From Vicinamibacterales bacterium (lineage in GTDB: Bacteria > Acidobacteriota > Vicinamibacteria > Vicinamibacterales > UBA8438), in contig OZ244656.1 in assembly GCA_965218825.1 (NCBI GenBank), positions 3,805,038-3,869,037 on the forward strand: a DNA stretch of 64,000 nucleotides. Reading direction: 5' to 3'. Position 1 is the stretch's first letter; each line of letters starts with the position of its first letter. Of the stretch, positions 1 through 15,911 are shown one piece after another. Position numbers and translations under genes: made by a program. The notes beneath the pieces are model-generated. The model was given only the letters and a program-made list of their open reading frames with translations, ran no database searches and was not told the DNA's origin.

Positions 1-4
1 CGGC

Positions 5-1069
5 GTGCCGTTCGAGAAACGGGTGCATGTCGGCAGCTGGATGCCCCCAAGCTATGACCCAGAGCTGCGTTTGATCTATCAGGGCACCTCGGTGACCTCG
101 CCGGCGCCGAAGTTCCTGCTCGGGGGTGTCAACAACACGCATCTGTACCACAACTCGACGCTGGCGCTCGATGTCGACACCGGTGAGATCAAGTGGTACT
201 ACCAGCACCTGAACGACCACTGGGATCTCGACCACCCGTTTGAGCGTTTGCTTGTTGACACTGCCGTGGCCCCGAATCCCGGTGCCGTGAGCTGGATCAA
301 TCCACGGATACAACCAGGTGAGGTCCGGAAGGTCGTGACCGGCGTGCCTGGCAAGACCGGTGTGGTCTATACGCTGGACCGAGAAACTGGCGAGTTCTTG
401 TGGGCGACGCCGACCGTGCCGCAGAACGTCATCAGCGACATCGACGGCGCGACGGGTGTCGTGACCGAGAACGCCGAGGTGGTCTTCACCTCGTATGGTC
501 AGGAAGTCTTGGCGTGTCCGACGTGGGCTGGAGGGAAGGACTGGGAGGCCGGCGCCTACAGCCCGCTGACCAACACGATGTACATGCCGTTACGCAGAAC
601 CTGCGCGCGCATGTTGGCCACGGGCACCCCAGAAGGGGAGCGGGAGTTGGCACTGACAGCCGGCGGGCAACGGCCGCTTGCCATCTACTCGCTCGCCGCC
701 CGGCACCAGATCGCACCCGGCCATGACCTGCTCGGGACGATCTACGCCGTATCCGCCGAGACGGGAGAGACGACGTGGCTCTACGAACAACGGGCCGCGA
801 CAATATCGCTCGCGGCCACGGGCGGTGGACTGGTGTTTGGTGGCGATGCAAACGGTCGGTTCAGGGCGTTTGACCAGGACACGGGCGAGATTCTGTGGGA
901 GATCAACCTCGGTTCGCCGGTTGTCGGCTATCCGGTGAGCTTCGCTGTTGATGGACGACAGTATGTGGCCGTGAGCACCGGCGGTGGCGCGGGTATCAAC
1001 CTGCGCATCACCCCCGAGCTGCGTCCAAGCTCCGGAAGCAACCTCTTCGTGTTCGCACTGCCGGAGTAG
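5..1069 (+). CDS. PQQ-dependent dehydrogenase (quinoprotein beta-propeller family), C-terminal part; 5' end outside window
   Basis: The ORF is open to the window edge. Its last propeller blades (GGLVFGGDANGRFRAFDQDTGEILWE...VSFAVDGRQYVAV) parallel those of the full-length PQQ enzyme at 54964-56688 (GGLVFAGGTNDRYFRAFDAETGDVLWQ...TSYAIDGVQYVAV). An HWDLD active-site-like motif lies at nt 218-232. Confidence 0.8.
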   Translation: MPFEKRVHVGSWMPPSYDPELRLIYQGTSVTSPAPKFLLGGVNNTHLYHNSTLALDVDTGEIKWYYQHLNDHWDLDHPFERLLVDTAVAPNPGAVSWINPRIQPGEVRKVVTGVPGKTGVVYTLDRETGEFLWATPTVPQNVISDIDGATGVVTENAEVVFTSYGQEVLACPTWAGGKDWEAGAYSPLTNTMYMPLRRTCARMLATGTPEGERELALTAGGQRPLAIYSLAARHQIAPGHDLLGTIYAVSAETGETTWLYEQRAATISLAATGGGLVFGGDANGRFRAFDQDTGEILWEINLGSPVVGYPVSFAVDGRQYVAVSTGGGAGINLRITPELRPSSGSNLFVFALPE

Positions 1070-1186
1070 TCGGACCTCTCCCAGGGTTACATCCGCCCGC
1101 CCGCCGCTCACGCCAGTCGTGCGCCTGGCCATCAGGTGGGGGGCAAGGGCCAGGTATAATCAGGTATAAGAACGAAACAACCCTCC

Positions 1187-2539
1187 ATGCAGAACCCCTC
1201 AAGAGCTTTGAAACCACCGGTCAAGGTCTGTCTCTTTTTGTTGTTGTGCTCTTTGGTCTACGGCGCGGCGGACGCGCAGCCCGAAGGGTCTGGCGCCGAG
1301 GCGGTCCGGATCTTCGTAGACTGCGGTCCGTGCGACGAAACCTACTTGCGCCGGGAGATCACGTTCGTCAACTATGTTCGGGATCGGGCTGACGCGCAGG
1401 TGCACGTGCTTGTCACTCGGGAGGTAAGCGGCGGCGGCGGTCGGGTCTGGACCGTCGATTTCTTCGGGCGCGATGAGTTTGAGGGAATGGACGACCAACT
1501 CGTATTCTTCACCGCCCGAGACGACACGGACGACGGCGAGCGCCGCGCCCTCGCGCAGACGCTCCGACTAGGGCTGGTCCGGTACGTCGCCCAGACCCCC
1601 CTCGGTCGGCAGCTGGACGTTTCCCAACGGTCAAGTGGTCCGCTGGGTGGCCCCCTAGCAGGCCAGCCCACCGGTGGGACGCTTCCATCGTTCAACGCTC
1701 AACCCGAGGACGATCGGTGGAATTTCTGGGTCTTCCGGGCGCGGATGAGACCGCTCGTCTTCATTGATGCCGAAGAGCGGGAGAAACAGAAACGCTTCGG
1801 CGGCTCGTTTTCGGCGTTTCGAACTACTGAGATGTGGAGGATGCGAATCGGCGTCGGCGCGACCTACCGGTCGCAGACGTTCGAGCTATCCGACTCGACG
1901 GCGACCAACATTCAGCGGAACAACAGTTTCGACGCTCGCTTTGTGAGGAGCATGGGCGAGCACATGGGTCTCGGGTTCGGCGGCTCGGCCATCAGCTCAA
2001 CGTTCAGGAATCAGGATCTGACCTACCGGGTGGCACCGGCCGTCGAGTACAACTTCTTCCCCTACTCCGAGTCCACGCGCCGGCAGTTCACGGTGGCCTA
2101 CTCGGCCGGCTACAACTCGTTCCGATACGCGGAGACTACGGTCTTCGGCCGGCTCGAAGAAGGGCGAGCCAATCACTCCGTTCAGACGTCTTTCGTGATG
2201 AACCAGCCCTGGGGCGCCAGCGACCTCACGATGGAGTTCTCGCAGTTCCTCGACGAGCCGGACCAGAACCGATTCGTCCTGTTCGAAGAAATGGATCTTC
2301 GGCTATTTCGCGGCCTGTCTCTGAACCTCGAGGCGAACAGCTCGTTCATTGGAGACCAGATCTACCTGCCGCTCGAAGACGCGACCGATGTGGAGGTGCT
2401 GCTGGGACGGCAGCAGCTCGCGACCGACTTCGAGTGGCGTCTTTTTGTTGGGCTAAGCTACTCGTTCGGGTCGATCTACAACAACATCGTCAACTCGAGG
2501 TTCGCAGGATCGTCCGGGGGTTTCACTCGCGCGTTCTAG
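1187..2539 (+). CDS. Hypothetical exported protein, possibly an outer-membrane beta-barrel
   Basis: N-terminal signal peptide (KVCLFLLLCSLVYGAADAQ). The C-terminal half is rich in alternating aromatic/polar beta-strand-like segments and ends in an aromatic residue (..GFTRAF), as in OMPs. I recognise no family. Confidence 0.55.
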   Translation: MQNPSRALKPPVKVCLFLLLCSLVYGAADAQPEGSGAEAVRIFVDCGPCDETYLRREITFVNYVRDRADAQVHVLVTREVSGGGGRVWTVDFFGRDEFEGMDDQLVFFTARDDTDDGERRALAQTLRLGLVRYVAQTPLGRQLDVSQRSSGPLGGPLAGQPTGGTLPSFNAQPEDDRWNFWVFRARMRPLVFIDAEEREKQKRFGGSFSAFRTTEMWRMRIGVGATYRSQTFELSDSTATNIQRNNSFDARFVRSMGEHMGLGFGGSAISSTFRNQDLTYRVAPAVEYNFFPYSESTRRQFTVAYSAGYNSFRYAETTVFGRLEEGRANHSVQTSFVMNQPWGASDLTMEFSQFLDEPDQNRFVLFEEMDLRLFRGLSLNLEANSSFIGDQIYLPLEDATDVEVLLGRQQLATDFEWRLFVGLSYSFGSIYNNIVNSRFAGSSGGFTRAF

Positions 2540-2560
2540 GCGCCGGCAGGATCTGACAGC

Positions 2561-3595
2561 ATGCGCGTCCGACAGACTCTGCAACACGGATACGTCTCAT
2601 TCCAGGACGACAACACGATCTCGCGTTTCACGTTGGATCCGACCACCGCCCAGCTCGAGTGGCAAGAGGATGTCGCCGTCGAGGGCGGCCCGGCGCCGCT
2701 GGCCCTTTCTCCTGGTAAAGAGGTTCTCTATGTCGGCCGGAGAGAGAGCCAGGAGATCGCCAGCTACCGGATTGACCCCCGCACGGGTCGCATTTCTCTG
2801 ATTGGGGCGGCGCCCCTGCAGGGGGAGCCGGTGTATGTGGCGACCGACCGAACCGGCCGATTCGTGCTGTCGGCCTACTACTATCAGAGCACGGCAGCCG
2901 TCCACACGGTCGGTCCCGATGGCGTTGTCGCGATTCCACCGGTCGAGTGGCGCTACACGGGGGGTGGGGCGCACGCGATCCTGACGGATCGCTCCAATCG
3001 ATTCGCGTTCGTGCCCCATATCGCCAACCGAGGTCCGAACGCGATCTTCCAGTTTCGGTTTGACGAGAGCACCGGGTCCCTCACGCCCAGCGATCCCCCC
3101 CGGTACGACCCACCGGACTACCTTGGCCCACGGGCGCTGTGTTTCCACCCGACGCTGGACGTCGTCTATTTTTCGGACGAGCAGGGCAACAGCGTGTCGG
3201 CGTACGCAATGGACGCGTCGGCTGGAACGCTGTCACCCCTGCAGACGATTTCGACGTTGCCTGACGGCTTCACGGGTCAGAATACGTGCTCTCAGATTCA
3301 GATCGCGCCATCGGGGCGATTCCTGTATGCGCCGAATCGGGGGCACGACAGCGTAGCGAGTTTCACGATCGATCAGTCCAGTGGTCGTTTGACCGCGACA
3401 GGCCGGGTTTCCACCGAGCCCATTCCTAGGGTTTTCAGTCTGGATCCGACCGGTCGCCTTCTCGTGGTGGCTGGCCAAGGGTCCGGGCGACTCGCGACCT
3501 ACCGGGCGCACGCCGATACCGGTGTACTGACACCCCTCGAGACCTACGAGGGCGGCAACAAGCCCATGTGGGTGCTGATCACCGCGTTTTCGTAG
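2561..3595 (+). CDS. Lactonase-type 7-bladed beta-propeller protein (6-phosphogluconolactonase/YbhE-like)
   Basis: The length is about 344 aa. Repeated blade motifs are typical of the family (..FVPHIANRGPNAIFQFRFD.., ..FHPTLDVVYFSDEQGNSVSAY.., ..GRFLYAPNRGHDSVASFTID.., ..DPTGRLLVVAGQGSGRLATY..). Confidence 0.7.
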   Translation: MRVRQTLQHGYVSFQDDNTISRFTLDPTTAQLEWQEDVAVEGGPAPLALSPGKEVLYVGRRESQEIASYRIDPRTGRISLIGAAPLQGEPVYVATDRTGRFVLSAYYYQSTAAVHTVGPDGVVAIPPVEWRYTGGGAHAILTDRSNRFAFVPHIANRGPNAIFQFRFDESTGSLTPSDPPRYDPPDYLGPRALCFHPTLDVVYFSDEQGNSVSAYAMDASAGTLSPLQTISTLPDGFTGQNTCSQIQIAPSGRFLYAPNRGHDSVASFTIDQSSGRLTATGRVSTEPIPRVFSLDPTGRLLVVAGQGSGRLATYRAHADTGVLTPLETYEGGNKPMWVLITAFS

Positions 3596-3625: not shown

Positions 3626-6427
3626 TTGGCACTGTCCTATGATAGACCCGTGGCGCCTATCCGATTCGCCGCGGTCGGTTCGATTGCACTCCTTCTGAAC
3701 ACGGTCTATCTCGTCGCATTCCCAACAGCCTCACTCGTCTACTTCACCAACGTTCTGCTGCACCCGGTTCTTGGCCTGGCAGTGGTCATTGCCATTGCGA
3801 TTGAGGCACGGCACCATGATTGGACGATCGGCCCGGTCCTGAGAGCCGGCATCGCGACCAGCGCCATCGCAGTGCTGGCGGGCCTCGCCATCGCGGTTGT
3901 TGGTGCCACGACCAACACGCGCCTCCTGGTGTATGCGCACGTTGTGACGGCGGTCGCGGGCGTGCTTCTCATCAGCGTGCACCTCTGGCGAGTTTCGCGC
4001 GAATGGCCGACGGTCAACGCGATACGTTTCTCGATCGTGACGCTGGCCATCATGCTAGCCGCGGCGCCTTGGGTGCGCTCGTGGAACGAGTCGGCCTGGC
4101 GCGACGCGTACAGCGTGGCGAACCCGACCGAGACGCCGCTGGACATGACCCAGGAGGGCGGTGGCGTCGAGAGTCCCTTCTTTCCGTCCTCGGCCAACAC
4201 GACGAGCGGCGATATCATTCCGGCGAACTTCTTTTTGACAAGCGAGATGTGCGCTCGGTGTCATCGAGACATTTACGATCAGTGGAACTCGTCCGTCCAC
4301 CACTTCTCGTCCTTCAACAACCAGTGGTATCGCAAGTCGATCGAGTACATGCAGGACGTGGTTGGGACCCAACCGTCCAAATGGTGTGCCGGATGTCACG
4401 ATCACGCCGTCTTCTTCAACGGTCGATTCGATCGACCGATGCGTGAGCAGATGGACACGCCCGAAGCTCAGGCCGGGCTCGGGTGTACGTCGTGCCACGC
4501 GGTGGTTCATGTGGGCGGCACGATGGGGCAGGGCGACTTCGTCATCGAGTACCCGCCGCTTCACGACCTTGCGACAAGCGACAACCCGATACTGGCGTGG
4601 ACGCACGATCGGCTGGCCTATCTGGCCCCTGAACCCCATCGTCGCACGTTCCTAAAGCCCTTTCACGAAGAGCGGAGTGAGGAATTCTGCTCGACATGTC
4701 ACAAGGTGCACCTCGACGAGCCCGTCAACCACTACCGGTGGATCCGGGGGTTCAACGAATACGACAACTGGCAGGCCTCGGGCGTGTCAGGCCAGGGCGC
4801 CCGTTCGTTCTATTACCCGCCGGAGCCACAGACGTGCAGGGACTGCCACATGCCCCTCGTTCCGTCGGATGATCCATCGGCGACGGACGGAGCCGTACGG
4901 TCACACCGTTTTGCCACGGCCAACACGGCCCTGCCTTTCGTCAACGGCGACGCCGACCAGCTTCAGGCCGTACAGGACTTCCTCACTGCCCGCCAGATCT
5001 CGGTCGATGTGTTTGGCGTTGCGAGGGTCGAGGAGGTGTCGCCGCTAGATGGGCAGGCCGCGGCGCGTACCGCTCCGGCATTGTCGAGTACGTTCGCCGT
5101 TGGGGAGGAATCACCAGGGTTCGGCGGAGGGGCCGCCACGACGACGTTCGCGCCTGCCGAGGTCGTCGCGCCGCTCGACGTCATTCCGGTCGCTGTGCGC
5201 CGCGGCGAGTCGGTGCGTGTCGAAGTAGTGCTTCGGACGCGCAACGTCGGACACTTCTTTCCTGGGGGAACCGTCGACGCGTTCGACGTGTGGGTCGAGT
5301 TTGAAGCGGTCGACGAGAACGGTCGCGTCCTTCTGCACAGCGGCGTGGTTGAGGACGACGGCCGCGGTCCCGTGGACCCCGCCGCGCACTTTTACGGCAG
5401 CTTCCAGCTGGACGGGCACGGCAACCAGATCAATAAACGCAACGCGTGGATGACGCGTTCGGTGGCGTATGTCCGGCTCGTCCCGCCGGGTGCAGCTGAC
5501 ACCGTGCACTATCGATTGCAAGTGCCGGAAGATGTTGGTGACCGTATCGTGCTTCGTGCCAAAGTGAACTACAGGAAGTTCGCCTGGTGGTATACACAGT
5601 GGGCCTACGCCGGCGTGCGTGACCCGGCGGAGTCGACTCCGGCTGTTGACGCCGGCTACGACGACGGCCCATGGCTTTTCACCGGCGATACCTCCACGGT
5701 CTCCGGTCCGATGAAGGAGATCCCAAACCTGCCAATTACGATCATGGCGGAGGCCGAGGCATCCCTCGTGGTCGTCGACGCGGACGCGCCGCTGCCGTCC
5801 GGCCCGTTGCCGGAGGGGGCGTCGTCGGATGTCCGTGGACGCTGGAACGACTATGGAATCGGTCTCCTGTTACAGGGTGATTTGCGAGGAGCCGCGAGCG
5901 CGTTCCAGCGGGTGATGGAGATCGATCCGGCCTATCCGGATGGGCCGGTGAATCTGGCTCGAGTACTTTTGCGAGAGGGCGACGTCCAACGAGCCCTTCC
6001 GCACCTCGAGTCGGCGCTCGAGCTCGCGCCGGGTCTGGCCCGTGCCCATGTCTTCCTTGGGATGGGCCTCAGGACGCTTGGACGGTATGACGAAGCCTTC
6101 AGCCACCTCGAAGCCGCACGCGCTCAGTACCCACGCGATCGCGTCGTGCTTGGCGAGCTGGGTCGCATCCACTTCCTCGAGCGACGGTTCGACGAGGCGA
6201 TCGCGACGTTCACCGATGTCTTGCGAATCGATCCTGAGGATCTGCAGGCCCACTACAACCTGATGCTGGCGTATCGTGGCGCAGGCGACCTCGAGCAGGC
6301 AGCCCGCGAGCAAGCGCTGTACGAGCGGTTCAAGGCCGACGAATCCGCGCAGGCGATTGCCGGACCGTTCTTGCTCCGGTCGCCCGAGGTCAACAACGAG
6401 CGACAGTCGGTTCACGAACATCGCTAG
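3626..6427 (+). CDS. Membrane-anchored multiheme c-type cytochrome fused to a C-terminal TPR domain
   Basis: There are about 5 N-terminal hydrophobic helices (residues ~14-150). Five CxxCH heme-binding motifs are present (CARCH nt 4250-4264, CAGCH, CTSCH, CSTCH, CRDCH nt 4835-4849). C-terminal TPR-like repeats occur (..AASAFQRVMEIDPAYPDG.., ..ALPHLESALELAPGLARAH.., ..AIATFTDVLRIDPEDLQAHYNL..). The start is uncertain (TTG at 3626). Confidence 0.8.
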   Translation: MALSYDRPVAPIRFAAVGSIALLLNTVYLVAFPTASLVYFTNVLLHPVLGLAVVIAIAIEARHHDWTIGPVLRAGIATSAIAVLAGLAIAVVGATTNTRLLVYAHVVTAVAGVLLISVHLWRVSREWPTVNAIRFSIVTLAIMLAAAPWVRSWNESAWRDAYSVANPTETPLDMTQEGGGVESPFFPSSANTTSGDIIPANFFLTSEMCARCHRDIYDQWNSSVHHFSSFNNQWYRKSIEYMQDVVGTQPSKWCAGCHDHAVFFNGRFDRPMREQMDTPEAQAGLGCTSCHAVVHVGGTMGQGDFVIEYPPLHDLATSDNPILAWTHDRLAYLAPEPHRRTFLKPFHEERSEEFCSTCHKVHLDEPVNHYRWIRGFNEYDNWQASGVSGQGARSFYYPPEPQTCRDCHMPLVPSDDPSATDGAVRSHRFATANTALPFVNGDADQLQAVQDFLTARQISVDVFGVARVEEVSPLDGQAAARTAPALSSTFAVGEESPGFGGGAATTTFAPAEVVAPLDVIPVAVRRGESVRVEVVLRTRNVGHFFPGGTVDAFDVWVEFEAVDENGRVLLHSGVVEDDGRGPVDPAAHFYGSFQLDGHGNQINKRNAWMTRSVAYVRLVPPGAADTVHYRLQVPEDVGDRIVLRAKVNYRKFAWWYTQWAYAGVRDPAESTPAVDAGYDDGPWLFTGDTSTVSGPMKEIPNLPITIMAEAEASLVVVDADAPLPSGPLPEGASSDVRGRWNDYGIGLLLQGDLRGAASAFQRVMEIDPAYPDGPVNLARVLLREGDVQRALPHLESALELAPGLARAHVFLGMGLRTLGRYDEAFSHLEAARAQYPRDRVVLGELGRIHFLERRFDEAIATFTDVLRIDPEDLQAHYNLMLAYRGAGDLEQAAREQALYERFKADESAQAIAGPFLLRSPEVNNERQSVHEHR

Positions 6428-6493
6428 TGGCGGCTTTTCCGCTCGCGCACGCTTACCGAAAAGCGCCAGATCCGTGCTGTACACTAGTGAAAA

Positions 6494-8263
6494 ATGACAT
6501 TTCAGTACGGACTGGCCACACCGAGCTTGGCGATCGTGTTGTTCTGGTCCGGCACGTTGGTCGGCTGCGGTGGGGCACCGTCTGAACCTACTACCGAGAT
6601 ACCGATTAAGCCCACGAAGACTCAGGACGGACACTCCTCGGGACCGACCCTGGCGTCAGACGTCGAGTTCGTCGATGTGACCGACGAGGTTGGGATTCGG
6701 TTCACGCACAACAGCGGAGCCACGGGCGACAGGCTCTTGCCCGAAACGCTTGGAGCCGGCGGGTTGGTCCTCGATGTCGATGCCGATGGATGGCAGGACG
6801 TCCTTCTGGTGAACTCGAAGGCGTGGCCAGGTGAGTCGGGCTCGCCGTCACATCCAGCGCTTTACCGCAACGCCGGTGACGGGACGTTTGTCAACATCTC
6901 CGGTGGGTCGGGGCTCGACGTCGAGCTTTACGGGATCGGCGGCGCGGTCGCAGACTACGACAACGACGGATATGTCGACATCTATCTGACGGCGCTGGGG
7001 CCAAACAGGTTGTTTCGGGGAAGAGGCGACGGGACGTTCTCGGATGTGACGGTATCCGCTGGAGTCGCGGGCCGTCGGTTTTCAACGAGCGCCGTGTGGT
7101 TCGACTACGATAACGATGGCCACCTCGACCTGTTCGTGGCGAACTACGTTGAATGGACGATCGACGGGGACTTGTTCTGCTCGCTTGACGGCGAGAACAA
7201 ATCGTACTGCACGCCAGAGGCCTACACCGGCCAAAGCCCGAACCTCTATCGCAATGCTGGTGACGGCACCTTTGAGGATGTGACAGCGGTCGCCGGCCTC
7301 GACGATCCGTCCTCGAAAGCGCTCGGCGTCGCCATGCTCGACTACGATGCTGACGGCTGGATGGATCTATTCGTGGCCAACGACACGGAGCCCGACCGCC
7401 TGTATCACAACCAGGGTGACGGGACGTTCACCGACAACGGCGTCGTGGCCGGCGTTGCTTTTAGCGAAGGCGGGGTTGCGCGTGCCGGTATGGGCGTCGA
7501 CGCGGCGGACTACGACGGGTCTGGACGCCCAAGCCTCGTGGTGGGTAACTTTTCGAACGAGATGATCGCGCTCTATCACAACGAGGGGAACGGCCTGTTC
7601 ATCGACGAAGCCCCGCGATCGGCCATTGGAAGCTCGTCGCTCCTGACCCTGGCGTTTAGCTGTTTCTTCTTCGACTACGACCTTGACGGACGTCCTGACA
7701 TCTTTGCGGCAAACGGTCACGTTGCCGACGATATCGAGCACGTGCAATCGAGCGTGACCTATGCGCAGCCGGCGCACTTGTTCCGGAACATGGGACCTGG
7801 TCGGTTCGAGGAGGTGACGGCTGTGGCGGGTACGGCGCTGGCGCGACCCACGGTAGCACGCGGTGCCGCCTATGGTGACTTCGATCTCGACGGCGACCCG
7901 GACCTTCTTGTCACGGCCAACAACGGCCCGGCCCGTGTCTTGCGCAACGACGGCGGTCACGCTAACAACGCACTGCGCGTAGTCACCGTGGGCACCGCAT
8001 CAAATCGTGATGGAATTGGCGCGCGAGTTGAAGTCATGATGAATGGCGAGTCGCGCTGGCAGATCGTCAAGACCGGATCAAGCTACGCCTCGCAAAGCGA
8101 GCTGCCGGTGACGTTCGGCGTCGGTACCGCTACCGCGGTGGAATCGCTGAGCGTCACCTGGCCGAGTGGAACGGTCGATCGGGTCGCCGGTGTCAACGCC
8201 AATCAACAGGTGACGGTGAAAGAGGGGGAGGGCGTGGTCGAGACGCGACCCTTTGAGCGCTAG
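6494..8263 (+). CDS. CRTAC1-family lipoprotein (FG-GAP/VCBS repeats + ASPIC/UnbV domain)
   Basis: Lipoprotein-type signal (..LFWSGTLVGCGG). Repeated Ca-binding FG-GAP motifs (DVDADGWQDVLLVN, DYDNDGYVDIYL, DYDNDGHLDLFVANY, DYDADGWMDLFVAND, DYDLDGRPDIFAANG, DFDLDGDPDLLV). C-terminal UnbV/ASPIC signature (SNRDGIGARVEV...GSSYASQSELPVTFGVG). Confidence 0.85.
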   Translation: MTFQYGLATPSLAIVLFWSGTLVGCGGAPSEPTTEIPIKPTKTQDGHSSGPTLASDVEFVDVTDEVGIRFTHNSGATGDRLLPETLGAGGLVLDVDADGWQDVLLVNSKAWPGESGSPSHPALYRNAGDGTFVNISGGSGLDVELYGIGGAVADYDNDGYVDIYLTALGPNRLFRGRGDGTFSDVTVSAGVAGRRFSTSAVWFDYDNDGHLDLFVANYVEWTIDGDLFCSLDGENKSYCTPEAYTGQSPNLYRNAGDGTFEDVTAVAGLDDPSSKALGVAMLDYDADGWMDLFVANDTEPDRLYHNQGDGTFTDNGVVAGVAFSEGGVARAGMGVDAADYDGSGRPSLVVGNFSNEMIALYHNEGNGLFIDEAPRSAIGSSSLLTLAFSCFFFDYDLDGRPDIFAANGHVADDIEHVQSSVTYAQPAHLFRNMGPGRFEEVTAVAGTALARPTVARGAAYGDFDLDGDPDLLVTANNGPARVLRNDGGHANNALRVVTVGTASNRDGIGARVEVMMNGESRWQIVKTGSSYASQSELPVTFGVGTATAVESLSVTWPSGTVDRVAGVNANQQVTVKEGEGVVETRPFER

Positions 8264-11200
8264 TGGCAGCAACAACACGACGACAGCTGGTCGGACTCTG
8301 GGGCGTGCTGGTCGGGTGTGCCACCGCAACGTGTGGTGGCGGCCCTGAGCTACCGCTCGCCAACGAGGCAACCTACCGCGCGAACAATCAAGGCGTCGCG
8401 CTGCTCGAGCAGTTCGACTATCAGCCGGCGGCCGAGGCGTTTCGCGAGGCGCTCGATCTGGACGAGTCACACGCGGCTGCCCGGGTCAACCTCGCGATAG
8501 CCCTGTTCCTCGAGCAGGATCTCGAAGGCGCGAATCGAGAAGCAACCGCAGCGGCTGCGGATTTGCCGTCAGCGCTCGAGCCGCCGTACCTGCGCGGACT
8601 GGTCGCGCGGGCGCAGAATCGCCTCGACGACGCCATGGTCGCCTTCGGCACAGTTCTCGAGGCCGATCCAATTGACGTCGGCACAAACATCAACTTGGGT
8701 CAGATCTACCTGGAGATGCGCGACTATCCGGCCGCGATCGAGCGACTCCGGATCGCATACGAACACGAGCCCTTCAACGTCACCGCTGTCTACAACCTGG
8801 GCCTCGCCCTAGCCCGCAGTGGCGAGACCGCGGCGGGGCAGGCGCTGCTGGAACAGGCGCAGGCGTTGAGGTCGACGGAGTACGCCGTCACGTACAACAC
8901 GGGATACCTGCAACAGGGTCGCTACGCCGAGGCGATCGCCTCCACGGGTGCCGAGGCGGAGCTGGTTGATACCGCCGTACCCACGAGCGTATTCACGTCG
9001 CTCGAGGTTGGATCGTGGTCGCCATCTTCCACCCCGACGTCGCCATTTGGTCGTCGGTTTGCCGCCGACGATCTGACCGACGACGGCGTTCGTGAACTTG
9101 TGGCTGGGTTGGGCGGCGGAGTGGCGCCATTCGACTTCGACATGGATGGGGATCTTGATCTGTTCGTCGCGATGCCGGACGGAGAACGCTTGATGCGTAA
9201 CGACGGCGCAGGCCGCTGGGCGGAGGTCACGGCGTCAGCCGGACTGTCGGTTGCCCCCGATGACGGCGTTCCCATCGGCGCCATCGTGGCGGACTACAAC
9301 AACGACGAAGCACTCGATCTCTTCGTGCTCCGCTATGGCGGAAGCAGCCTCTATCAGAGCGATGGCGCTGGCAGCTTTACAGACGTGACGTCGTCGGCCG
9401 GCCTCTCGGACATCACACAGGCGCATGTGCCGGGCGCTGCGGCCTTTGCCGATCTCGATCATGACGGCGACGCCGACCTCATCATCGCCGGTCTCGCTGA
9501 TGTAGAGTCGTCGCTCGTATCGTTGGCAGAGGGCGCGTCGCTGCTGTTTCCCGAGGAGTTCGCACCGGCGCCGTTGCGCGTGCTCCGCAATAACCAGGAC
9601 GGGTCGTTCACCGATGTCACGGATGCGTCAGAAGTCGCGTTTTCAGGTCATGCCGTGGCGGTGGTGCCGACCGATTTCGACAACCGCCGAGATGTCGACC
9701 TGCTCGTGATCGATCGCGGCGGACCGCCCCGACTGTTCATGAACCTGCGGGACTCGACGTTTCGGGACGTTGCGTCTGAGGTGGGACTGGCGACTGCTGG
9801 CAACGCGATCGCGACGGTGTCGGCGGGAGACGTGAACAAAGACGACTTTCCTGACTTCGTCCTCGGGCGTGCCTCCGACGCCCTTGTCGCGCTGAGCGAT
9901 GGGCGGGGGCGATTTACGCTTGTTCCCGCTCCGGACGGAGCAGGCGACGCCAGCGCTCTCCGATTGCTCGACTACGACAACGACGGCTTGCTCGACTTGC
10001 TCGCGTGGGTGACCGACGGACCCCGGCTGTTCCGAAATCTTGGCCAGGACTGGAGCGATGTGTCCGGCACGGCGTTCGCCAGCTTCACCACCGAAGCGCC
10101 GGCGCCGGGCGCGGGTGGCCTTGGCGTTGCCGACATCGATCGTGACGGTGACAGCGATATCGTCGCGGTTGGCCCGGAGCGCGTCGTGATCGCTGAGAAC
10201 AGCGGAGATTCGCGGAACGCGTCAATTCGGATCGGGCTCCGCGGACTGGTTAGCAATCGCGCCGGGATTGGGGCGAAGGTGCAGCTGCGCGCCGGCAGCT
10301 TGAGTTCGCGTTTGGAGGCGTCGTCGGCGACGCCCGCGGCGGCACCGGCCGATCTGGTCTTCGGCATTGGGCGGCGACCCGGCGCGGACGTGGCCCGGGT
10401 GTTGTGGCCTTCCGGCATCTTGCAGGCCGAAGTGCCGGAACAGGACTACCTCTCGTCCGAGTTGGATGTCCAAGAGCTTGACCGCGAGCCCTCGTCGTGT
10501 CCGTTTCTCTTCACGTGGAACGGCAACCGGTTCGAGTTCGTCACCGATTTCCTCGGAGGCGGCGAGATGGGGCTGTGGCATGGTCCGGATCGCTACAACA
10601 CGCCGGATCCGGTGGAGTACGTCCGGATTCGGGATGACCAGTTGAAGCCGAAAGACGGGTTCCTCGAGCTCAGGGTCACGAGCGAACTTGAGGAGGCGGT
10701 CTTCTTCGACCATTTGGAGCTGGTGGTCCTGGAGCACCCTCGCGACGTTCAGATCTACCCGAACGAAGGCCTGACCGATCCGCCCAAACCGCACCAGCTG
10801 CACGCCGTGCGTGACCCTCGCGTCCCGGATCGCGTGCGAGACGAGAGCGGAAGCGACGTCACCGATCTGGTTGCGCAGATCGATGGGCGCTCCCCCGAGG
10901 GCTTTGCGCTGGCCCCATTTCGGGGCTATGCCGAAATCCACAGTCTGATTCTCGATCTGGGGGCGTCCAGCGACTCTGCCGTCCTCCTGCTTACCGGTTG
11001 GACCTCGTACGCGTTCTCGAGCGACAACCTTGCCGCGCTGCAAGCTGGGCTTACGCCCATCGTACCGGCGCTGGAAATCAAGGACACGAGCGGGACCTGG
11101 CGTCCGGCTGGAGTCGATATGGGATTCCCGGTGGGCCGGCCGCAGACCATCGCGGTCGACCTGACCGATCACCTTCAAGCCGGTGAGCACGAGCTCCGGA

Positions 11201-11754
11201 TCGTGACCAACATGCGGATCTACTGGGATCAGATCCTGGTTGGTCGTCGCGCCTCGATCGATGGGGTCCGCGAGCACCGAATCGATCTGTCCAGCGCCGA
11301 TCTACGCGAACGTGGTTTCTCTGCGGAGACGCGCACCGAGCCCACGACATACGACTACGATCGTGTCAGCGCGAAATCACCGTGGAAAACCATGGCGGGA
11401 AGTTACACGCGGGAGGGCGACGTGATCGAGCTGCTCGCGGCTGGCGATGACCGTTTCGTCATCACGCGCGACGGCGACGAAATCGTCCTGCGGTACGATG
11501 CCTCGGCGCTCGATCCGATCCACGAGAATCAGGCTCGGACCTACCTGCTTCGCGCCGACGGTTTCAGCAAGGAGATGGACATCAACTCGGCCACTCCGGA
11601 TTCGGTCGAACCGCTCCCGTTCCACGCGATGTCTCGATACCCGTACAGCGCGTCCGAGCGGTATCCCAGCACATCGGCGCACCGCCGGTATCGCGAAACC
11701 TACAACACGCGCCCGGTCGTTGCTTCGGTGCCGCGTATCGAGGCGGCGAGGTAA
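8263..11754 (+). CDS. Large lipoprotein: N-terminal TPR + FG-GAP/VCBS repeats + ASPIC/UnbV + ~440-aa uncharacterised C-terminal region
   Basis: The GTG start overlaps the upstream stop by 1 nt (TAGTG). Lipoprotein-like signal (LVGCATATCGG). TPR repeats span residues ~35-200. FG-GAP motifs are present (DFDMDGDLDLFVA, DYNNDEALDLFV, DLDHDGDADLII, DYDNDGLLDLLAW, DIDRDGDSDIVA). UnbV-like block (SNRAGIGAKVQLRAG...VLWPSGILQ). Confidence 0.8.
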   Translation: MAATTRRQLVGLWGVLVGCATATCGGGPELPLANEATYRANNQGVALLEQFDYQPAAEAFREALDLDESHAAARVNLAIALFLEQDLEGANREATAAAADLPSALEPPYLRGLVARAQNRLDDAMVAFGTVLEADPIDVGTNINLGQIYLEMRDYPAAIERLRIAYEHEPFNVTAVYNLGLALARSGETAAGQALLEQAQALRSTEYAVTYNTGYLQQGRYAEAIASTGAEAELVDTAVPTSVFTSLEVGSWSPSSTPTSPFGRRFAADDLTDDGVRELVAGLGGGVAPFDFDMDGDLDLFVAMPDGERLMRNDGAGRWAEVTASAGLSVAPDDGVPIGAIVADYNNDEALDLFVLRYGGSSLYQSDGAGSFTDVTSSAGLSDITQAHVPGAAAFADLDHDGDADLIIAGLADVESSLVSLAEGASLLFPEEFAPAPLRVLRNNQDGSFTDVTDASEVAFSGHAVAVVPTDFDNRRDVDLLVIDRGGPPRLFMNLRDSTFRDVASEVGLATAGNAIATVSAGDVNKDDFPDFVLGRASDALVALSDGRGRFTLVPAPDGAGDASALRLLDYDNDGLLDLLAWVTDGPRLFRNLGQDWSDVSGTAFASFTTEAPAPGAGGLGVADIDRDGDSDIVAVGPERVVIAENSGDSRNASIRIGLRGLVSNRAGIGAKVQLRAGSLSSRLEASSATPAAAPADLVFGIGRRPGADVARVLWPSGILQAEVPEQDYLSSELDVQELDREPSSCPFLFTWNGNRFEFVTDFLGGGEMGLWHGPDRYNTPDPVEYVRIRDDQLKPKDGFLELRVTSELEEAVFFDHLELVVLEHPRDVQIYPNEGLTDPPKPHQLHAVRDPRVPDRVRDESGSDVTDLVAQIDGRSPEGFALAPFRGYAEIHSLILDLGASSDSAVLLLTGWTSYAFSSDNLAALQAGLTPIVPALEIKDTSGTWRPAGVDMGFPVGRPQTIAVDLTDHLQAGEHELRIVTNMRIYWDQILVGRRASIDGVREHRIDLSSADLRERGFSAETRTEPTTYDYDRVSAKSPWKTMAGSYTREGDVIELLAAGDDRFVITRDGDEIVLRYDASALDPIHENQARTYLLRADGFSKEMDINSATPDSVEPLPFHAMSRYPYSASERYPSTSAHRRYRETYNTRPVVASVPRIEAAR

Positions 11755-11761
11755 CGGGCAC

Positions 11762-12781
11762 ATGGAACACGTTCGCTACTCGGCCGCCGCGTGCCAGACC
11801 GATCTTGCCAACCCGACCGACCGGTCACACATGCGCAAGAACACCGACCGGATACTCAGCATGGTGGACTCAGCCGTGGAGGGGAGTGCACCGTTTCTTC
11901 CAGTACGACTCGTGGTGTTTCCGGAGTTCGCACACGCCGCGCCGGTGTTTCCGACGGTCGAGGAGTTGCGGCGGAAGCTGACTGTGCCGATTCCCAACGA
12001 ACACACCGATCGGCTTACGGCGAAGGCCCGCGAGCATGGCATCTACATCCAGAGTGGGACGATGCTCGAGGAAGACTCGAAATACCCAGCCGTGGTCTTC
12101 AACACGACATGTCTGATCGGGCCGGGCGGCATTCTCACCAAGTACCGAAAGGTCAACCCGTGGATTCCGTATGAGGTGCACGCGAGCCCCCACGACTTGC
12201 CTGGCTACGACGAGCCGCTCTTTCCCGTGGCCGATACACCTATCGGCCGCATCGGTTGTGCGATCTGTTATGACTGGCTATTTCCCGAAGCGCTGCGTCA
12301 GCTAGCTGCGAACGGCGCTGAGGTCCTGGTCCGGGTGTCGGCCTACATGGATCCGTGGGGCGCGACCGAGCCGATGTCGTGGTGGACGATCGTCAATCGG
12401 TCCCGAGCGTTGGAGAACCTCTCTTACGTCGTTGCGGCGAACCAGGGCGCGAGTCTTCGGCACTACCCCCCGTACTCGTGGCCGGGCGGTTCCCAGGTCG
12501 TCGACTTCGACGGGCGGCTGCTGGCCGAAGCATCACCGGGTCCAGGGGAGCGGATCGTGATTGCGCCGATCGACATTTCGGCCCTCCGTCACGAACGGCA
12601 GGCGCGGACGGGCCATCACATGCTTGCGCATCTTCGCACTGAGGCCTACGAGGTGTATCGGCGCCCTGGCTATCCACCATCCGGCGGAGATGCGACGGCC
12701 CTGTCGTACCCGGGCAACCGTCAGCGGATCGAGGCCGCCAAGCAGGCCTTTGTCTCGCCGTCGACCCGAGAACCGGCCTAG
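11762..12781 (+). CDS. Carbon-nitrogen hydrolase (nitrilase/aliphatic amidase superfamily)
   Basis: The E-K-C catalytic triad context is present: VVFPEF (Glu), YRKVNPW (Lys), GCAICYDWLFPE (Cys). I take the in-frame ATG at 11762 (MEHVRYSAAAC..). The ORF-track start at 11447 would overlap the preceding gene by about 300 nt. Confidence 0.85.
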   Translation: MEHVRYSAAACQTDLANPTDRSHMRKNTDRILSMVDSAVEGSAPFLPVRLVVFPEFAHAAPVFPTVEELRRKLTVPIPNEHTDRLTAKAREHGIYIQSGTMLEEDSKYPAVVFNTTCLIGPGGILTKYRKVNPWIPYEVHASPHDLPGYDEPLFPVADTPIGRIGCAICYDWLFPEALRQLAANGAEVLVRVSAYMDPWGATEPMSWWTIVNRSRALENLSYVVAANQGASLRHYPPYSWPGGSQVVDFDGRLLAEASPGPGERIVIAPIDISALRHERQARTGHHMLAHLRTEAYEVYRRPGYPPSGGDATALSYPGNRQRIEAAKQAFVSPSTREPA

Positions 12782-12864: not shown

Positions 12865-14259
12865 ATGGGTGGCGGCCAAGAGGTCGAAGTAGATAGTCAG
12901 ACCGCAGACGGTTCGATGCGTCCATCTGGGCTGCTCCTGGCCCTGCTGGTCCTGCTGGGTGGATCAGCGATCCTGGTGATCGGAGCGCTCAGCGGGCGCT
13001 ACTTCTTCATCAGCAAGGGCACGATTTTGCCGCTTCTGCTGCTGGGGGCCATGCTGTCGGGCCAGACCCGTGCCTTTCTGCGCGATTGGCTGTTGTTTCT
13101 GTCGCTGCTGCTGTTGTTCGATACGCTGCGCGGCACGATCTACCTCGCCATCTTCGAGTGGCATTTGCCCTGGTATATGGGCTATGCCATCAGGCTGGAG
13201 GAACTGATCTTCGGCGTCCCCTCCGCCTCGCACTGGGTTCACGACACCTGGCCGGAGCTGGTCGCATCGCCACTGGTCCGCAGCCTCATGGTGATGGTTC
13301 ACGCTTCGCACTTCCTCTACTTCCTGGGATTCGGTTTCGCCGTCTACAGGTTGGCACCGCATCACTTCCGGTTGTACACAACCGCCATGACGCTGGTCAT
13401 GGCCGGTGGGTTGGTTGGCTATCTGTTAGTGCCGACGGTGCCGCCTTGGATGGCGGCCGACTTCTTCGGCGTGCTGCCGCCCATTGAGCGTCTGCTCGAC
13501 GAAACCTACAACAGCTACATCCCGACGGTCCTGGTTGGATTGCAGACAAACCACATTGCCGCGATGCCGTCGTTGCACGTCGCGTTTCCGACGACCTGCT
13601 GCGCCATCGCGTGGCATCTGTTCGGATGGCGTGCGTGGCCCGCATTGGTCTACACGGTACTCACGCTGGTCTCGCCAATCTACTTGGCTGAGCACTACGC
13701 CGTCGATGTGCTGGCGGGGATCGGACTAGGGCTCGCCGCGTATCTCGTCGCTGTGTCGCGGCGCGCGGTTCCGGCCCCAGAGGTCGAGCCTCCCGAGGGG
13801 AATCGAGAGACCGGCTGGGGCGACCTCATCAGCTATATCGGCGCGCGCCGACTACTGGCGTGCACCGTCATCTTCTACGTGGCAGCAGGCTCGGGCTTCT
13901 TCAATGAGGGAAGCCGCTTCCCCGGGCTCTTGCCCAACGAACGTTTCATCGAGCGCGAGCTGGCGGGCCGGACCGAATTGGTGAACTTCTTCAAGGGAAC
14001 ACTGGCGCTGCAGGCAGGGCATCACGAGTCCGCCCGACGTCAACTGACGGAGAGCCTGAAGCAGCCGGTCGTCGGGCATGAAGAGTTTCTTGGTTACGTC
14101 CTCTTGCTCGAGGTCGCGATTCGCGCCAACGCCGTCCCCTTGCTGATCGAGGTTCTGGAGGGCATGCCCTCAGACCTGAAGACACCCCTGGGTCGTGAGG
14201 CCCTCGAGGAAGCCCACCGCCGGGTTGTCTCATTGCCGGGCACCGTGCGAACAAACTAG
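12865..14259 (+). CDS. PAP2_3-type integral membrane protein (inositol-phosphorylceramide-synthase/Aur1-like phosphatase-transferase fold) with a soluble helical C-terminal extension
   Basis: Multiple TM helices. Acid-phosphatase-type motifs are present: AAMPSLHVAFP (nt 13564-13590) and LAEHYAVDVLAG (nt 13687-13719). The C-terminal ~130 aa are helical and TPR-like. Confidence 0.65.
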   Translation: MGGGQEVEVDSQTADGSMRPSGLLLALLVLLGGSAILVIGALSGRYFFISKGTILPLLLLGAMLSGQTRAFLRDWLLFLSLLLLFDTLRGTIYLAIFEWHLPWYMGYAIRLEELIFGVPSASHWVHDTWPELVASPLVRSLMVMVHASHFLYFLGFGFAVYRLAPHHFRLYTTAMTLVMAGGLVGYLLVPTVPPWMAADFFGVLPPIERLLDETYNSYIPTVLVGLQTNHIAAMPSLHVAFPTTCCAIAWHLFGWRAWPALVYTVLTLVSPIYLAEHYAVDVLAGIGLGLAAYLVAVSRRAVPAPEVEPPEGNRETGWGDLISYIGARRLLACTVIFYVAAGSGFFNEGSRFPGLLPNERFIERELAGRTELVNFFKGTLALQAGHHESARRQLTESLKQPVVGHEEFLGYVLLLEVAIRANAVPLLIEVLEGMPSDLKTPLGREALEEAHRRVVSLPGTVRTN

Positions 14260-14294
14260 TCGCCTACGTCACACGACCACGAGTACTGCCCACT

Positions 14295-15911
14295 ATGCAA
14301 CTCGCCCGCTACCCGCTGCATCCGTTTCTTCTCGCCTGCTACTTCCCGATGCTCCTGCTGTCGAACAACATGGGCTTGTTCGGTGTCGAGGACGTCTATC
14401 GGGCGATCAGCCTGAACCTGGTGCTGGCCTTTGTCCTTTTCTACATGTTCCGGCTGGCTTACCGGGATGGTGGCCGGGCCGCGTTTGCCACGACCGCGAT
14501 ACTTGGTCTGTGTTTCTCATTTCGATTGATCGGTGGAAGCCCCGAATCTGCGCTGTCTGATTCGCTCGCCCTGGCTGTGACTGGAGTGGCCGGTCTTGCT
14601 GTCGTCGTGCTGGCGTCGAGGATCCCGCGCGATAATGTCGAAGCTCCCCTGATCCTCAACGTGTTCGTCACGGTGATGCTGATTGTGCCGGTCTATGAGG
14701 TCGTCGACGCGCAGCTGGCGGACGACGATCCCGCATCGCGGGTGGCCAGCGGCATCGATTCGGCGGCGCACGACGTGTTGCGTCACGCACATATGCCCGA
14801 CACGCTGCCTACGGTTTTTCACATCGTGGCGGACGGCTATTCTCGCAACGACGTGCTGCAGGATGTTTACGGGTACGACAATTCGGCGTTTACGAGTCGT
14901 CTGCGCGAACTCGGCTTCGCGGTCAGCGATCGAGCCACGACACCGTACGGACAGACGCTGCTGGCCGTCAACTCCGTGTTGTCGATGAACTACCTCAACG
15001 ACTACATCGCGGCTCTCGAATCGGATGGCGAACTGGAACCGGCCCGACTGCGAAAGGTCCTGAAGCGGTTCTTCTACACCGCTCCCGTCCTCCAGCTGTT
15101 CGAGGAGATGGGCTATCACCTGGTCATGACCGAGACCGACTATCCGCCGCTCAACAACCCGGAGGCCGATTACTTCCTTGAGTCCAAGACCGATCCGTTC
15201 GCCCTCACGTTCTACGAGCACGCTCTCCTGGCAACGACACCATTCTCCGTGGGGAGTACGCGGAGCGCGCTTCTTCTACAGGCCGCGATGGAGTCCAACA
15301 GAAAGCTGATCTTCGCGCTTGGCCCGCACGACTACGCTCGAATGGAGAAGCCCCTCTTCGTGCTGACCCACGTCTTGTCGCCGCACCCGCCGTTCACGAT
15401 CGATCGTGATGGCGTACCGCAACGAGACAGCGCCGCTCGGTCTGATGGAAACCGTTGGATCGGGGACAATCCCGAGCGTCGACGCCAGTACCAAGACCGC
15501 TATCTCGAGAAACTGCAGTACACCAACGGTGCCCTGATGAAACACGTCGAAGGTCTCATCGAGAACTTCGAAGGGCCGAAGGTGATTATCATTCACGGGG
15601 ATCACGGAGGTGGGCTGTACCTGAATCACGACGACGGTTCGGCAACCTGTCTTAAGGAACGGTTTTCGCCGTTCCTCGCCGTATACGCCAGCGACCGTCG
15701 AGTGACAGACGCGTTGGGCGATGACATGAACCTCGTCAACTTGTACCGAGTGCTGTTCAACGAGATCTTTGATACTGATCTGCCGGCGCTTCCCTCGAGA
15801 AGCTTCTTCGCGCCGTGGGAAGATCCGACTCAGCTTCAGGAGATCGCGCCCGAGCGTCTCGAGTCCTTGGGCGCGCAGTGTCACGCGTTCGCGACACGTG
15901 CGTCGAGGTGA
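14295..15911 (+). CDS. Membrane-anchored sulfatase-like / alkaline-phosphatase-superfamily protein (LtaS/EptA-like architecture)
   Basis: About 5 N-terminal TM helices are followed by a soluble domain with VFHIVADGYSRNDV (metal-binding Asp context) and IIHGDHGGG (the HGDHG motif typical of sulfatase/phosphotransferase folds). Confidence 0.6.
   Translation: MQLARYPLHPFLLACYFPMLLLSNNMGLFGVEDVYRAISLNLVLAFVLFYMFRLAYRDGGRAAFATTAILGLCFSFRLIGGSPESALSDSLALAVTGVAGLAVVVLASRIPRDNVEAPLILNVFVTVMLIVPVYEVVDAQLADDDPASRVASGIDSAAHDVLRHAHMPDTLPTVFHIVADGYSRNDVLQDVYGYDNSAFTSRLRELGFAVSDRATTPYGQTLLAVNSVLSMNYLNDYIAALESDGELEPARLRKVLKRFFYTAPVLQLFEEMGYHLVMTETDYPPLNNPEADYFLESKTDPFALTFYEHALLATTPFSVGSTRSALLLQAAMESNRKLIFALGPHDYARMEKPLFVLTHVLSPHPPFTIDRDGVPQRDSAARSDGNRWIGDNPERRRQYQDRYLEKLQYTNGALMKHVEGLIENFEGPKVIIIHGDHGGGLYLNHDDGSATCLKERFSPFLAVYASDRRVTDALGDDMNLVNLYRVLFNEIFDTDLPALPSRSFFAPWEDPTQLQEIAPERLESLGAQCHAFATRASR

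Follow-up and report, generated by a model that had tools for sequence, protein, structure and literature searches.

A conserved envelope gene module of Acidobacteriota pairing a membrane pentahaem cytochrome with CRTAC1-type propeller proteins

Membrane-bound cytochromes such as CbcL, ImcH and the CymA/NapC/NirT proteins of Geobacter and Shewanella join a membrane anchor, possibly the seat of a b-haem or of quinol binding, to a multihaem c domain in the periplasm, and they pass electrons to periplasmic partners. The Acidobacteriota belong to the most abundant bacteria of soils, and only a small part of their physiology has been examined experimentally. Here we analysed a stretch of 64,000 nucleotides (the window) from a Vicinamibacterales bacterium (assembly GCA_965218825.1, contig OZ244656.1, positions 3,805,038 to 3,869,037) and describe a run of four genes in it, located at positions 3626-12781 of the window: cytTPR, encoding a predicted inner-membrane pentahaem cytochrome with tetratricopeptide repeats (TPR); crtacS and crtacL, encoding exported CRTAC1-type proteins; and nit, encoding an amidase of the nitrilase superfamily. 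These genes belong to a real and widely conserved envelope gene module. On balance, we lean towards the view that this module of the Acidobacteriota is built around the inner-membrane cytochrome, which would act as a quinone-pool-linked electron conduit serving the exported propeller partners.

The layout of cytTPR, five transmembrane (TM) helices followed by five CxxCH motifs, is similar to that of CbcL, ImcH and the NapC/NirT-type proteins; however, Pfam and NCBIfam revealed no relation to NapC/NirT or HydC/FdnI-type domains. In addition, cytTPR differs from these quinol oxidoreductases in its haem fold, in its TPR arm and in having a CRTAC1-type propeller as partner instead of a soluble cytochrome. 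The haem core itself is a member of the c552/PHC fold in a new, anchored and TPR-fused architecture. Cytochrome c552 from Thermochromatium tepidum (5ZE8) likewise has five c-haems followed by a beta-sandwich, and its His-containing beta-domain motif aligns with the one in cytTPR. The c552 chain is, however, only 385 residues long (435 amino acids in the sequence library), aligns with the haem and beta-sandwich part only and is about 14% identical, whereas cytTPR extends such a stand-alone protein by a five-TM domain, in which two His residues are invariant, and by a TPR array at the C-terminus. The PHC family, in which pentahaem domains are followed by an Ig-like domain, includes 5ZE8, Geobacter ExtKL, Gsu2801 and cytochromes of cable bacteria (PMC11976967).

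For the propeller proteins, vertebrate CRTAC1 (structure 9ETN) is the reference. It has the FG-GAP calcium propeller and the UnbV_ASPIC domain in common with crtacS; in contrast to the vertebrate protein, no EGF-like tail was detected in crtacS with Pfam, and the crtacS product is a periplasmic or lipid-anchored protein whose gene is coupled to that of a cytochrome. The matrix role of vertebrate CRTAC1 says little about the function in bacteria. The fixed genetic association of one CRTAC1-like orthologous group with a membrane electron carrier provides a functional setting in which the bacterial CRTAC1 family can be tested. A second, independent association of haem proteins with CRTAC1 has been described in non-anammox bacteria, in which CRTAC1-family genes lie between genes for hydrazine-synthase-like haem proteins (PMC12758564). 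There, too, an FG-GAP/CRTAC1 gene is placed between genes for haem c proteins, but these encode homologues of the hydrazine synthase (HZS) alpha and beta-gamma subunits, the taxa are others and a TPR cytochrome is absent. The amidase nit is similar in length to, and shares the Glu-Lys-Cys motifs with, AmiF and AmiE (5G3O, 2DYU, 2UXY), and its best NCBIfam matches are formamidase and aliphatic amidase; with about 30% identity to these enzymes, it forms a conserved clade of its own that is tied to CRTAC1 genes. In the literature on ASPIC/UnbV, CRTAC1, multihaem and FG-GAP proteins we found no description of a cytochrome-CRTAC1-amidase module. What is new is that CRTAC1 genes are specifically linked to a formamidase-like amidase and, elsewhere, to an amidase-signature enzyme.

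The features of the locus are the following (window coordinates):
3626..6427, plus strand: cytTPR, predicted inner-membrane pentahaem c-type cytochrome with C-terminal TPR array (open reading frame, translation, Pfam Cytochrome_C554 and TPR)
3626..4081, plus strand: N-terminal membrane domain of cytTPR, about 5 predicted TM helices (conservation of His46/His105; topology from sequence)
4163..5035, plus strand: pentahaem domain of cytTPR, five CxxCH motifs within residues 209-408 (alignment; PDB match 5ZE8)
5153..5785, plus strand: beta-sandwich domain of cytTPR with an invariant GHFFPGGT motif (model, Foldseek, invariant residues)
5843..6340, plus strand: TPR array of cytTPR, residues ~740-905 (Pfam TPR_19, TPR_2, TPR_12 and others)
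6494..8263, plus strand: crtacS, 589-aa exported CRTAC1-type protein with a seven-repeat FG-GAP propeller of the calcium type and UnbV_ASPIC, with a lipobox in this genome (Pfam, 9ETN match, synteny)
8263..11754, plus strand: crtacL, exported protein with signal/lipobox, TPR (8383-8943), FG-GAP propeller (9109-10242), UnbV_ASPIC (10264-10425) and an unclassified C-terminal domain (Pfam, orthologues)
10441..11751, plus strand: C-terminal 437-aa all-beta domain of crtacL (AlphaFold2 model, conservation; no Pfam or PDB match)
11762..12781, plus strand: nit, 339-aa nitrilase-superfamily amidase, formamidase- or aliphatic-amidase-like, no signal peptide (CN_hydrolase, PDB matches, synteny)

The preliminary description of this DNA had proposed that the four genes form one system, to be judged by whether their synteny is conserved beyond this genome. 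Conservation was indeed found throughout the phylum for cytTPR and crtacS, but the four genes are not uniformly one unit: the set present here expands a core of two genes, cytTPR-crtacS, in a lineage-specific manner. Among 20 relatives, the two core genes are adjacent in 18; the same genomes contain a crtacL orthologue (46-79% identity) in seven cases and a form with the same architecture but only ~30% identity in five more, and nit follows crtacL in five. A scan with haem-domain patterns, using one genome per species, matched at least 596 species, and together with thousands of metagenome protein clusters this shows a module whose proteins have so far been named just 'TPR repeat protein' or 'CRTAC1 family protein'. 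The 80 best loci were examined and span Vicinamibacteria, Blastocatellia, Terriglobia (Bryobacterales, Terriglobales, Acidoferrales), Thermoanaerobaculia and Holophagales. A crtacS orthologue (53-69% identity) is located directly downstream of cytTPR in 57 of the 66 loci that have at least 2.2 kb of downstream sequence, and about four more lie just beyond the distance window (57-61/66). The cytTPR-crtacS pair was also present in all three further contexts obtained from the search for distant homologues, one of which carries a name, Acidobacteriia.

Of the 45 loci whose flanking sequence is long enough on either side, 19 have the third gene, crtacL, no more than 10 kb from cytTPR, 11 times downstream of crtacS and eight times directly upstream of cytTPR; the upstream position is that of the Terriglobia. 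Gene order is thus permuted while the linkage to cytTPR persists. Altogether, crtacL joins the core pair in ~40% of the loci and nit in ~10-15%. Apart from the four genes themselves, clustering of the open reading frames (ORFs) from 100 loci revealed only an amidase-signature gene as a conserved neighbour. Among 151 evenly sampled Acidobacteriota genomes of at least 90% completeness, the cytochrome was detected in 45 (23 at the orthologue level, 22 more distant) and the C-terminal domain of crtacL in 61, namely in 44 of the 45 cytochrome-positive genomes and in 17 of the 106 cytochrome-negative ones; since the genomes are related, these counts are not independent trials. Taken together, the genes of the module almost certainly work together.

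Within the window the four co-directional genes have the minimal spacing that had been described before. The ORF list contains 3626-6427 (933 aa), 6494-8263 (589 aa), 8263-11754 (1163 aa) and 11762-12781 (339 aa), all on the plus strand, and the junctions can be read directly from the sequence: the TAG of cytTPR (6425-6427) is followed by the ATG of crtacS at 6494 (66-nt gap), crtacS and crtacL share the 1-nt stop/start overlap TAGTG (8261-8265), and between the TAA of crtacL (11752-11754) and the ATG of nit (11762) there are 7 nt. Distances of 66, -1 and 7 nt are compatible with a single four-gene transcript. A promoter and terminator scan of the locus was uninformative, yielding sites no commoner than in shuffled sequence. 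The start codon of cytTPR might be GTG at 3650 (925 aa, as in the public gene call P0005) instead of TTG at 3626. The earlier domain assignments, cytochrome plus TPR, twice FG-GAP plus ASPIC/UnbV and nitrilase superfamily, agree with Pfam, which also places TPRs at both the C-terminus of the cytochrome and the N-terminus of the 1163-aa protein as had been stated; in NCBIfam, none of the four proteins scored above any curated cut-off.

From the N-terminus onwards, cytTPR consists of the TM helices, the haem motifs, about 100 poorly predicted residues, a domain of ~210 residues and the TPR array; the membrane domain and the beta-sandwich domain have no Pfam match. The five CxxCH motifs start at residues 209, 254, 287, 355 and 404, and together with His76, His189 and His278 they are invariant in an alignment of 16 sequences with identities down to 33%. 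In part of the family (P0130, P0132, P0137, P0149 and others) the first haem motif is CX3CH or CX4CH and not CXXCH. When the haem and beta region was compared with the PDB, 5ZE8 was the best and sole significant sequence match (E=3.9e-4, phmmer), and the alignment extends into the beta domain. A Foldseek search with the model of cytTPR also retrieved 5ZE8 (E=2e-8, probability 1.0, TM-score 0.54 on the target) as the only PDB match at E<=0.001.

The membrane domain contains two highly conserved His residues: among 166 family members, His46 in TM2 is kept in 97% and His105 in TM4 in 99%, while every other TM His is kept in less than 40%. Tyr28, Leu29, Tyr39, Gly50, Gly86 and Gly93 are conserved as well and cluster at the same membrane face as the two His. 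Arg-rich segments are found at the N-terminus, in loop 2 and in loop 4, a distribution that suggests a cytoplasmic N-terminus and an outward-facing haem domain, with His46, His105 and the other conserved positions near the periplasmic face. There, the two residues may form one bis-His b-haem site or a quinol pocket. Two b-haems in the membrane domain, as a further option, were rejected: just two TM His are conserved, and these support one bis-His site at most.

The architecture extends far beyond the close relatives. An HMMER search with residues 150-735 against clusters at 50% identity yielded at least 2911 clusters at E<=0.001 and 756 at E<=1e-30. Most of these clusters are equal in length and begin their haem domain at residue 150-230, pointing to the same anchored architecture in most family members. 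TPRs were present in seven of ten distant family members examined. In some genomes (G020:C1:1330240-1333013, G093:C4:524992-526664, G148:C105 and G050) cytTPR is split across two frames or contigs, reflecting a frameshift, a pseudogene or an assembly error.

The c552/PHC fold of the haem core also suggests another reading. The module might be an extracellular or periplasmic electron conduit of the kind proposed for Geobacter ExtKL, leading respiratory electrons outward to insoluble or polymeric acceptors, for instance metal oxides or humic matter, with the propellers being adaptors at the surface or in the periplasm and not enzymes. Grouping of the fold with ExtKL, Gsu2801 and the cytochromes of cable bacteria (PMC11976967) is in line with this idea, as are the membrane anchor of cytTPR and the conserved His at its periplasmic face. 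On the other hand, neither a porin gene nor a gene for an outer-membrane cytochrome is conserved beside the module, five haems are too few to cross the periplasm alone, and the amidase would be left without a role. Furthermore, the host lineage is typically aerobic. We therefore regard an outward conduit as unlikely.

The electron conduit that we favour, linked to the quinone pool and serving the propellers, would operate as follows. His46 in TM2 and His105 in TM4, each at the periplasmic end of its helix, would bind a single b-type haem or form part of a quinol site, so that electrons could be exchanged between the five c-haems and the menaquinone pool. The TPR arms of cytTPR and crtacL might dock the propellers, which fits the presence of TPR genes following other CRTAC1 paralogues in this genome. 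The propellers, in turn, would bind or transform an extracytoplasmic substrate, and where an amidase is present, an imported nitrogen-containing product would be deamidated in the cytoplasm. If this is true, the module would be a periplasmic enzyme system of a new, quinone-linked type and might add a new step to the known turnover of organic matter in soil.

Several observations weigh against a quinone-linked conduit of this kind, in addition to the relatedness of the sampled genomes mentioned above. The TM domain of cytTPR matches no known b-haem or quinol-binding family in Pfam. The AlphaFold2 model, computed from 46 sequences, has a mean pLDDT of 62.5, with low confidence in the haem domain and good confidence only in the beta domain (pLDDT 70-95); a weak haem part is to be expected, as haems are absent from the modelling. 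On the side of the partner, crtacS shows no redox cofactor site: its orthologue-specific residues include one His and no Cys cluster. Moreover, crtacL and nit are missing from most loci and are therefore accessory. The link to the amidase could reflect shared regulation and not a shared pathway. Finally, two homologues in Calditrichota-type metagenome-assembled genomes (MAGs) keep the TM-pentahaem-TPR architecture and have no CRTAC1 neighbour. Because of these two homologues, and with the further contexts all paired, the pairing of cytTPR with crtacS is claimed for the Acidobacteriota. A distant cytTPR homologue in an unclassified MAG (L137:1014-1856) adjoins a menaquinone biosynthesis gene of the futalosine pathway (VitK2_biosynth) and has no CRTAC1 neighbour.

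The assignment of crtacS to the CRTAC1 type is strong. Pfam reports FG-GAP_3 (E=1.8e-52, 176 bits) and UnbV_ASPIC (E=2.7e-18, 66 bits), and residues 179-561 match the structure of human CRTAC1 (9ETN) with E=6.3e-22. Its conserved positions are mostly calcium loops of the DxDxDG type and are common to its paralogues. A redox or metal site in crtacS was considered and rejected, since no cluster of Cys or His that sets the orthologues apart was found. In crtacL, FG-GAP_3 was found with E=2.6e-37 (128 bits), while UnbV_ASPIC reached 22.8 bits against a cut-off of 23.4 bits; in a genome-wide search with the same family it scored 28.1 bits, above the cut-off.

Both FG-GAP proteins had been described as lipoproteins. 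Lipobox-like signals are in fact present in this genome, TLVGC in crtacS and LVGC / ATATC in crtacL, but most orthologues have plain signal peptides. A lipobox-type pattern was found in nine of 81 crtacS orthologues, some of them false on inspection, the remainder having ordinary signal peptides, and distant crtacL orthologues likewise lack a lipobox. Predicted lipid anchoring thus appears to be a peculiarity of this genome and its nearest relatives. Export of crtacL by the Tat system was rejected, the TRRQLV motif not being kept even among close orthologues.

In Pfam (E<=10) and among the sequences of the PDB, the C-terminal domain of crtacL is without a match. It contains 37 invariant columns in 43 sequences, and its AlphaFold2 model is all-beta with high confidence (pLDDT 88.9, pTM 0.88); Foldseek retrieved no PDB match for the model at E<=0.001, and the structure search showed a weak and partial likeness to carbohydrate-binding modules (CBM) and jelly-roll modules. 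Judged by model and conservation, this appears to be a real yet unclassified domain.

These properties of the propeller proteins could also be read in terms of polymers: the propellers might bind or cleave a glycan or another polymer in the manner of a lectin or lyase, cytTPR being only a membrane scaffold or a redox sensor by which they are positioned or regulated, with haems that report the redox state instead of feeding a reaction. The DxDxDG-type loops as the main conserved feature of crtacS and the all-beta, CBM- or jelly-roll-like C-terminal domain of crtacL would suit such a role, and so would the pairing of TPR proteins with CRTAC1 paralogues where no cytochrome is present. In contrast, the haem motifs, the axial His and the two TM His do not vary even at 33% identity, a degree of conservation beyond what a sensor seems to need, and no gene for a glycoside hydrolase or a transporter is conserved beside the module. 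We consider this explanation improbable. In the genome studied here, most of the ~13 other UnbV_ASPIC genes adjoin a separate TPR gene, also without a cytochrome; examples of such TPR-CRTAC1 pairs are located on G000:C1 at 3560372-3562938, 3011732-3014277 and 4443350-4445835.

The fourth gene, nit, encodes a clear member of the nitrilase superfamily (Pfam CN_hydrolase PF00795, E=2.1e-38). Its best PDB matches are the formamidases 5G3O and 2DYU, and the segments VVFPEF, YRKVNPW and CAICYD align with the motifs of the catalytic Glu, Lys and Cys. Compared with the NCBIfam equivalogs, nit scored 104.7 bits for formamidase (cut-off 406) and 86.6 bits for aliphatic amidase (cut-off 427), so far below both cut-offs that a substrate cannot be assigned. 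Since nit has no signal peptide, it is predicted to be cytoplasmic. The earlier proposal of a periplasmic system thus applies to the three envelope proteins, which are exported or membrane-bound, but not to nit.

The cytoplasmic location raises the question whether nit is only a passenger that is inherited beside crtacL in one clade, is co-transcribed for convenience and has no part in the function of the envelope proteins. Its absence from ~85-90% of the module loci would agree with such a role, as would the behaviour of more distant nit genes: in the sample of 151 genomes, nit was detected in 16, and it adjoins crtacL in six of the eight genomes in which it has at least 74% identity but in only one of the eight with 57-67% identity. 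However, the crtacL C-terminal domain was present in all 16 nit-positive genomes. The nit clade is conserved at 78-92% identity across at least 120 metagenome clusters, and in the 41 genomes consisting of this one and 40 relatives, intact close orthologues of nit were found only beside crtacL (6/6). Looking from the amidase side, six nit homologues that were chosen only for their long contigs all have CRTAC1 genes within 3.5 kb. Three of these contexts contain the full cytTPR-crtacS-crtacL set, with nit directly after crtacL in two and 3.5 kb further in the third, and one is a crtacS-crtacL-nit arrangement without a cytochrome. Linkage is kept across three positions, since nit can follow crtacL, directly follow crtacS or directly precede cytTPR. 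In addition, a decayed second copy of the module in a genome of the same genus (G004) still retains remnants of both genes, nit with an in-frame TGA (2815727-2816551) and an N-terminal fragment of cytTPR (2820261-2820503, both on C1), 4 kb apart.

A further argument against a passenger comes from other lineages, in which an unrelated amidase family recurs at the module. Amidase-signature genes (PF01425), unrelated to nit, flank the module in ~10 Terriglobia-type loci that lack nit; such loci are L100, L105, L106, L108, L115, L126, L085, L090 and L139 (e.g. L108:13796-15247). The PF01425 amidase beside the module also has no signal peptide and may be a non-orthologous counterpart of nit. Two unrelated amidase families beside the same module are a new, if weak, hint on its chemistry. 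We therefore find it doubtful that nit is a mere passenger, and the evidence for a cytoplasmic amide-hydrolysing step in the process served by the envelope genes is moderate. Common ancestry of the arrangements could inflate this linkage signal.

A more far-reaching reading would make the module a new type of periplasmic redox enzyme, in which the calcium propeller is the subunit handling an amide- or nitrogen-bearing organic soil compound and the product is imported and deamidated by nit or, in other lineages, by the PF01425 amidase. At present we would give this reading little chance; if true, organic nitrogen or carbon would be acquired by a new route that is wired to the quinone pool.

The run of genes on the plus strand exceeds the four discussed here. 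Directly upstream on the same strand (2-3595), genes for a PQQ dehydrogenase, a 450-aa protein without a family and a lactonase-type seven-bladed propeller are located, the last of which ends at 3595, 30 nt 5' of cytTPR. These three genes were rejected as members of the module, being kept only in the two nearest relatives. The PAP2 and sulfatase-like genes on the other side (12865-15911) were rejected as well, having been found in none of the loci of the 20 relatives. The gene after nit is variable: here a PAP2_3 gene starts 83 nt after nit and a DinB_2 gene is absent, in the nearest relative (G002, L032) a gene of the beta-lactamase family follows nit directly, and in two complete four-gene metagenome clusters a DinB_2 gene is located directly 3' of nit (L131:10060-10572 and L132:10059-10565).

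Both ends of the single genome contig (G000:C1:1-7688 and 5404320-5405219) repeat an internal region of ~8.5 kb (4440857-4449427) that contains three CRTAC1 genes together with TPR genes and gives identical tblastn matches. The repeat may be a genuine duplication; otherwise it is an overlap that persisted on circularisation of the contig.

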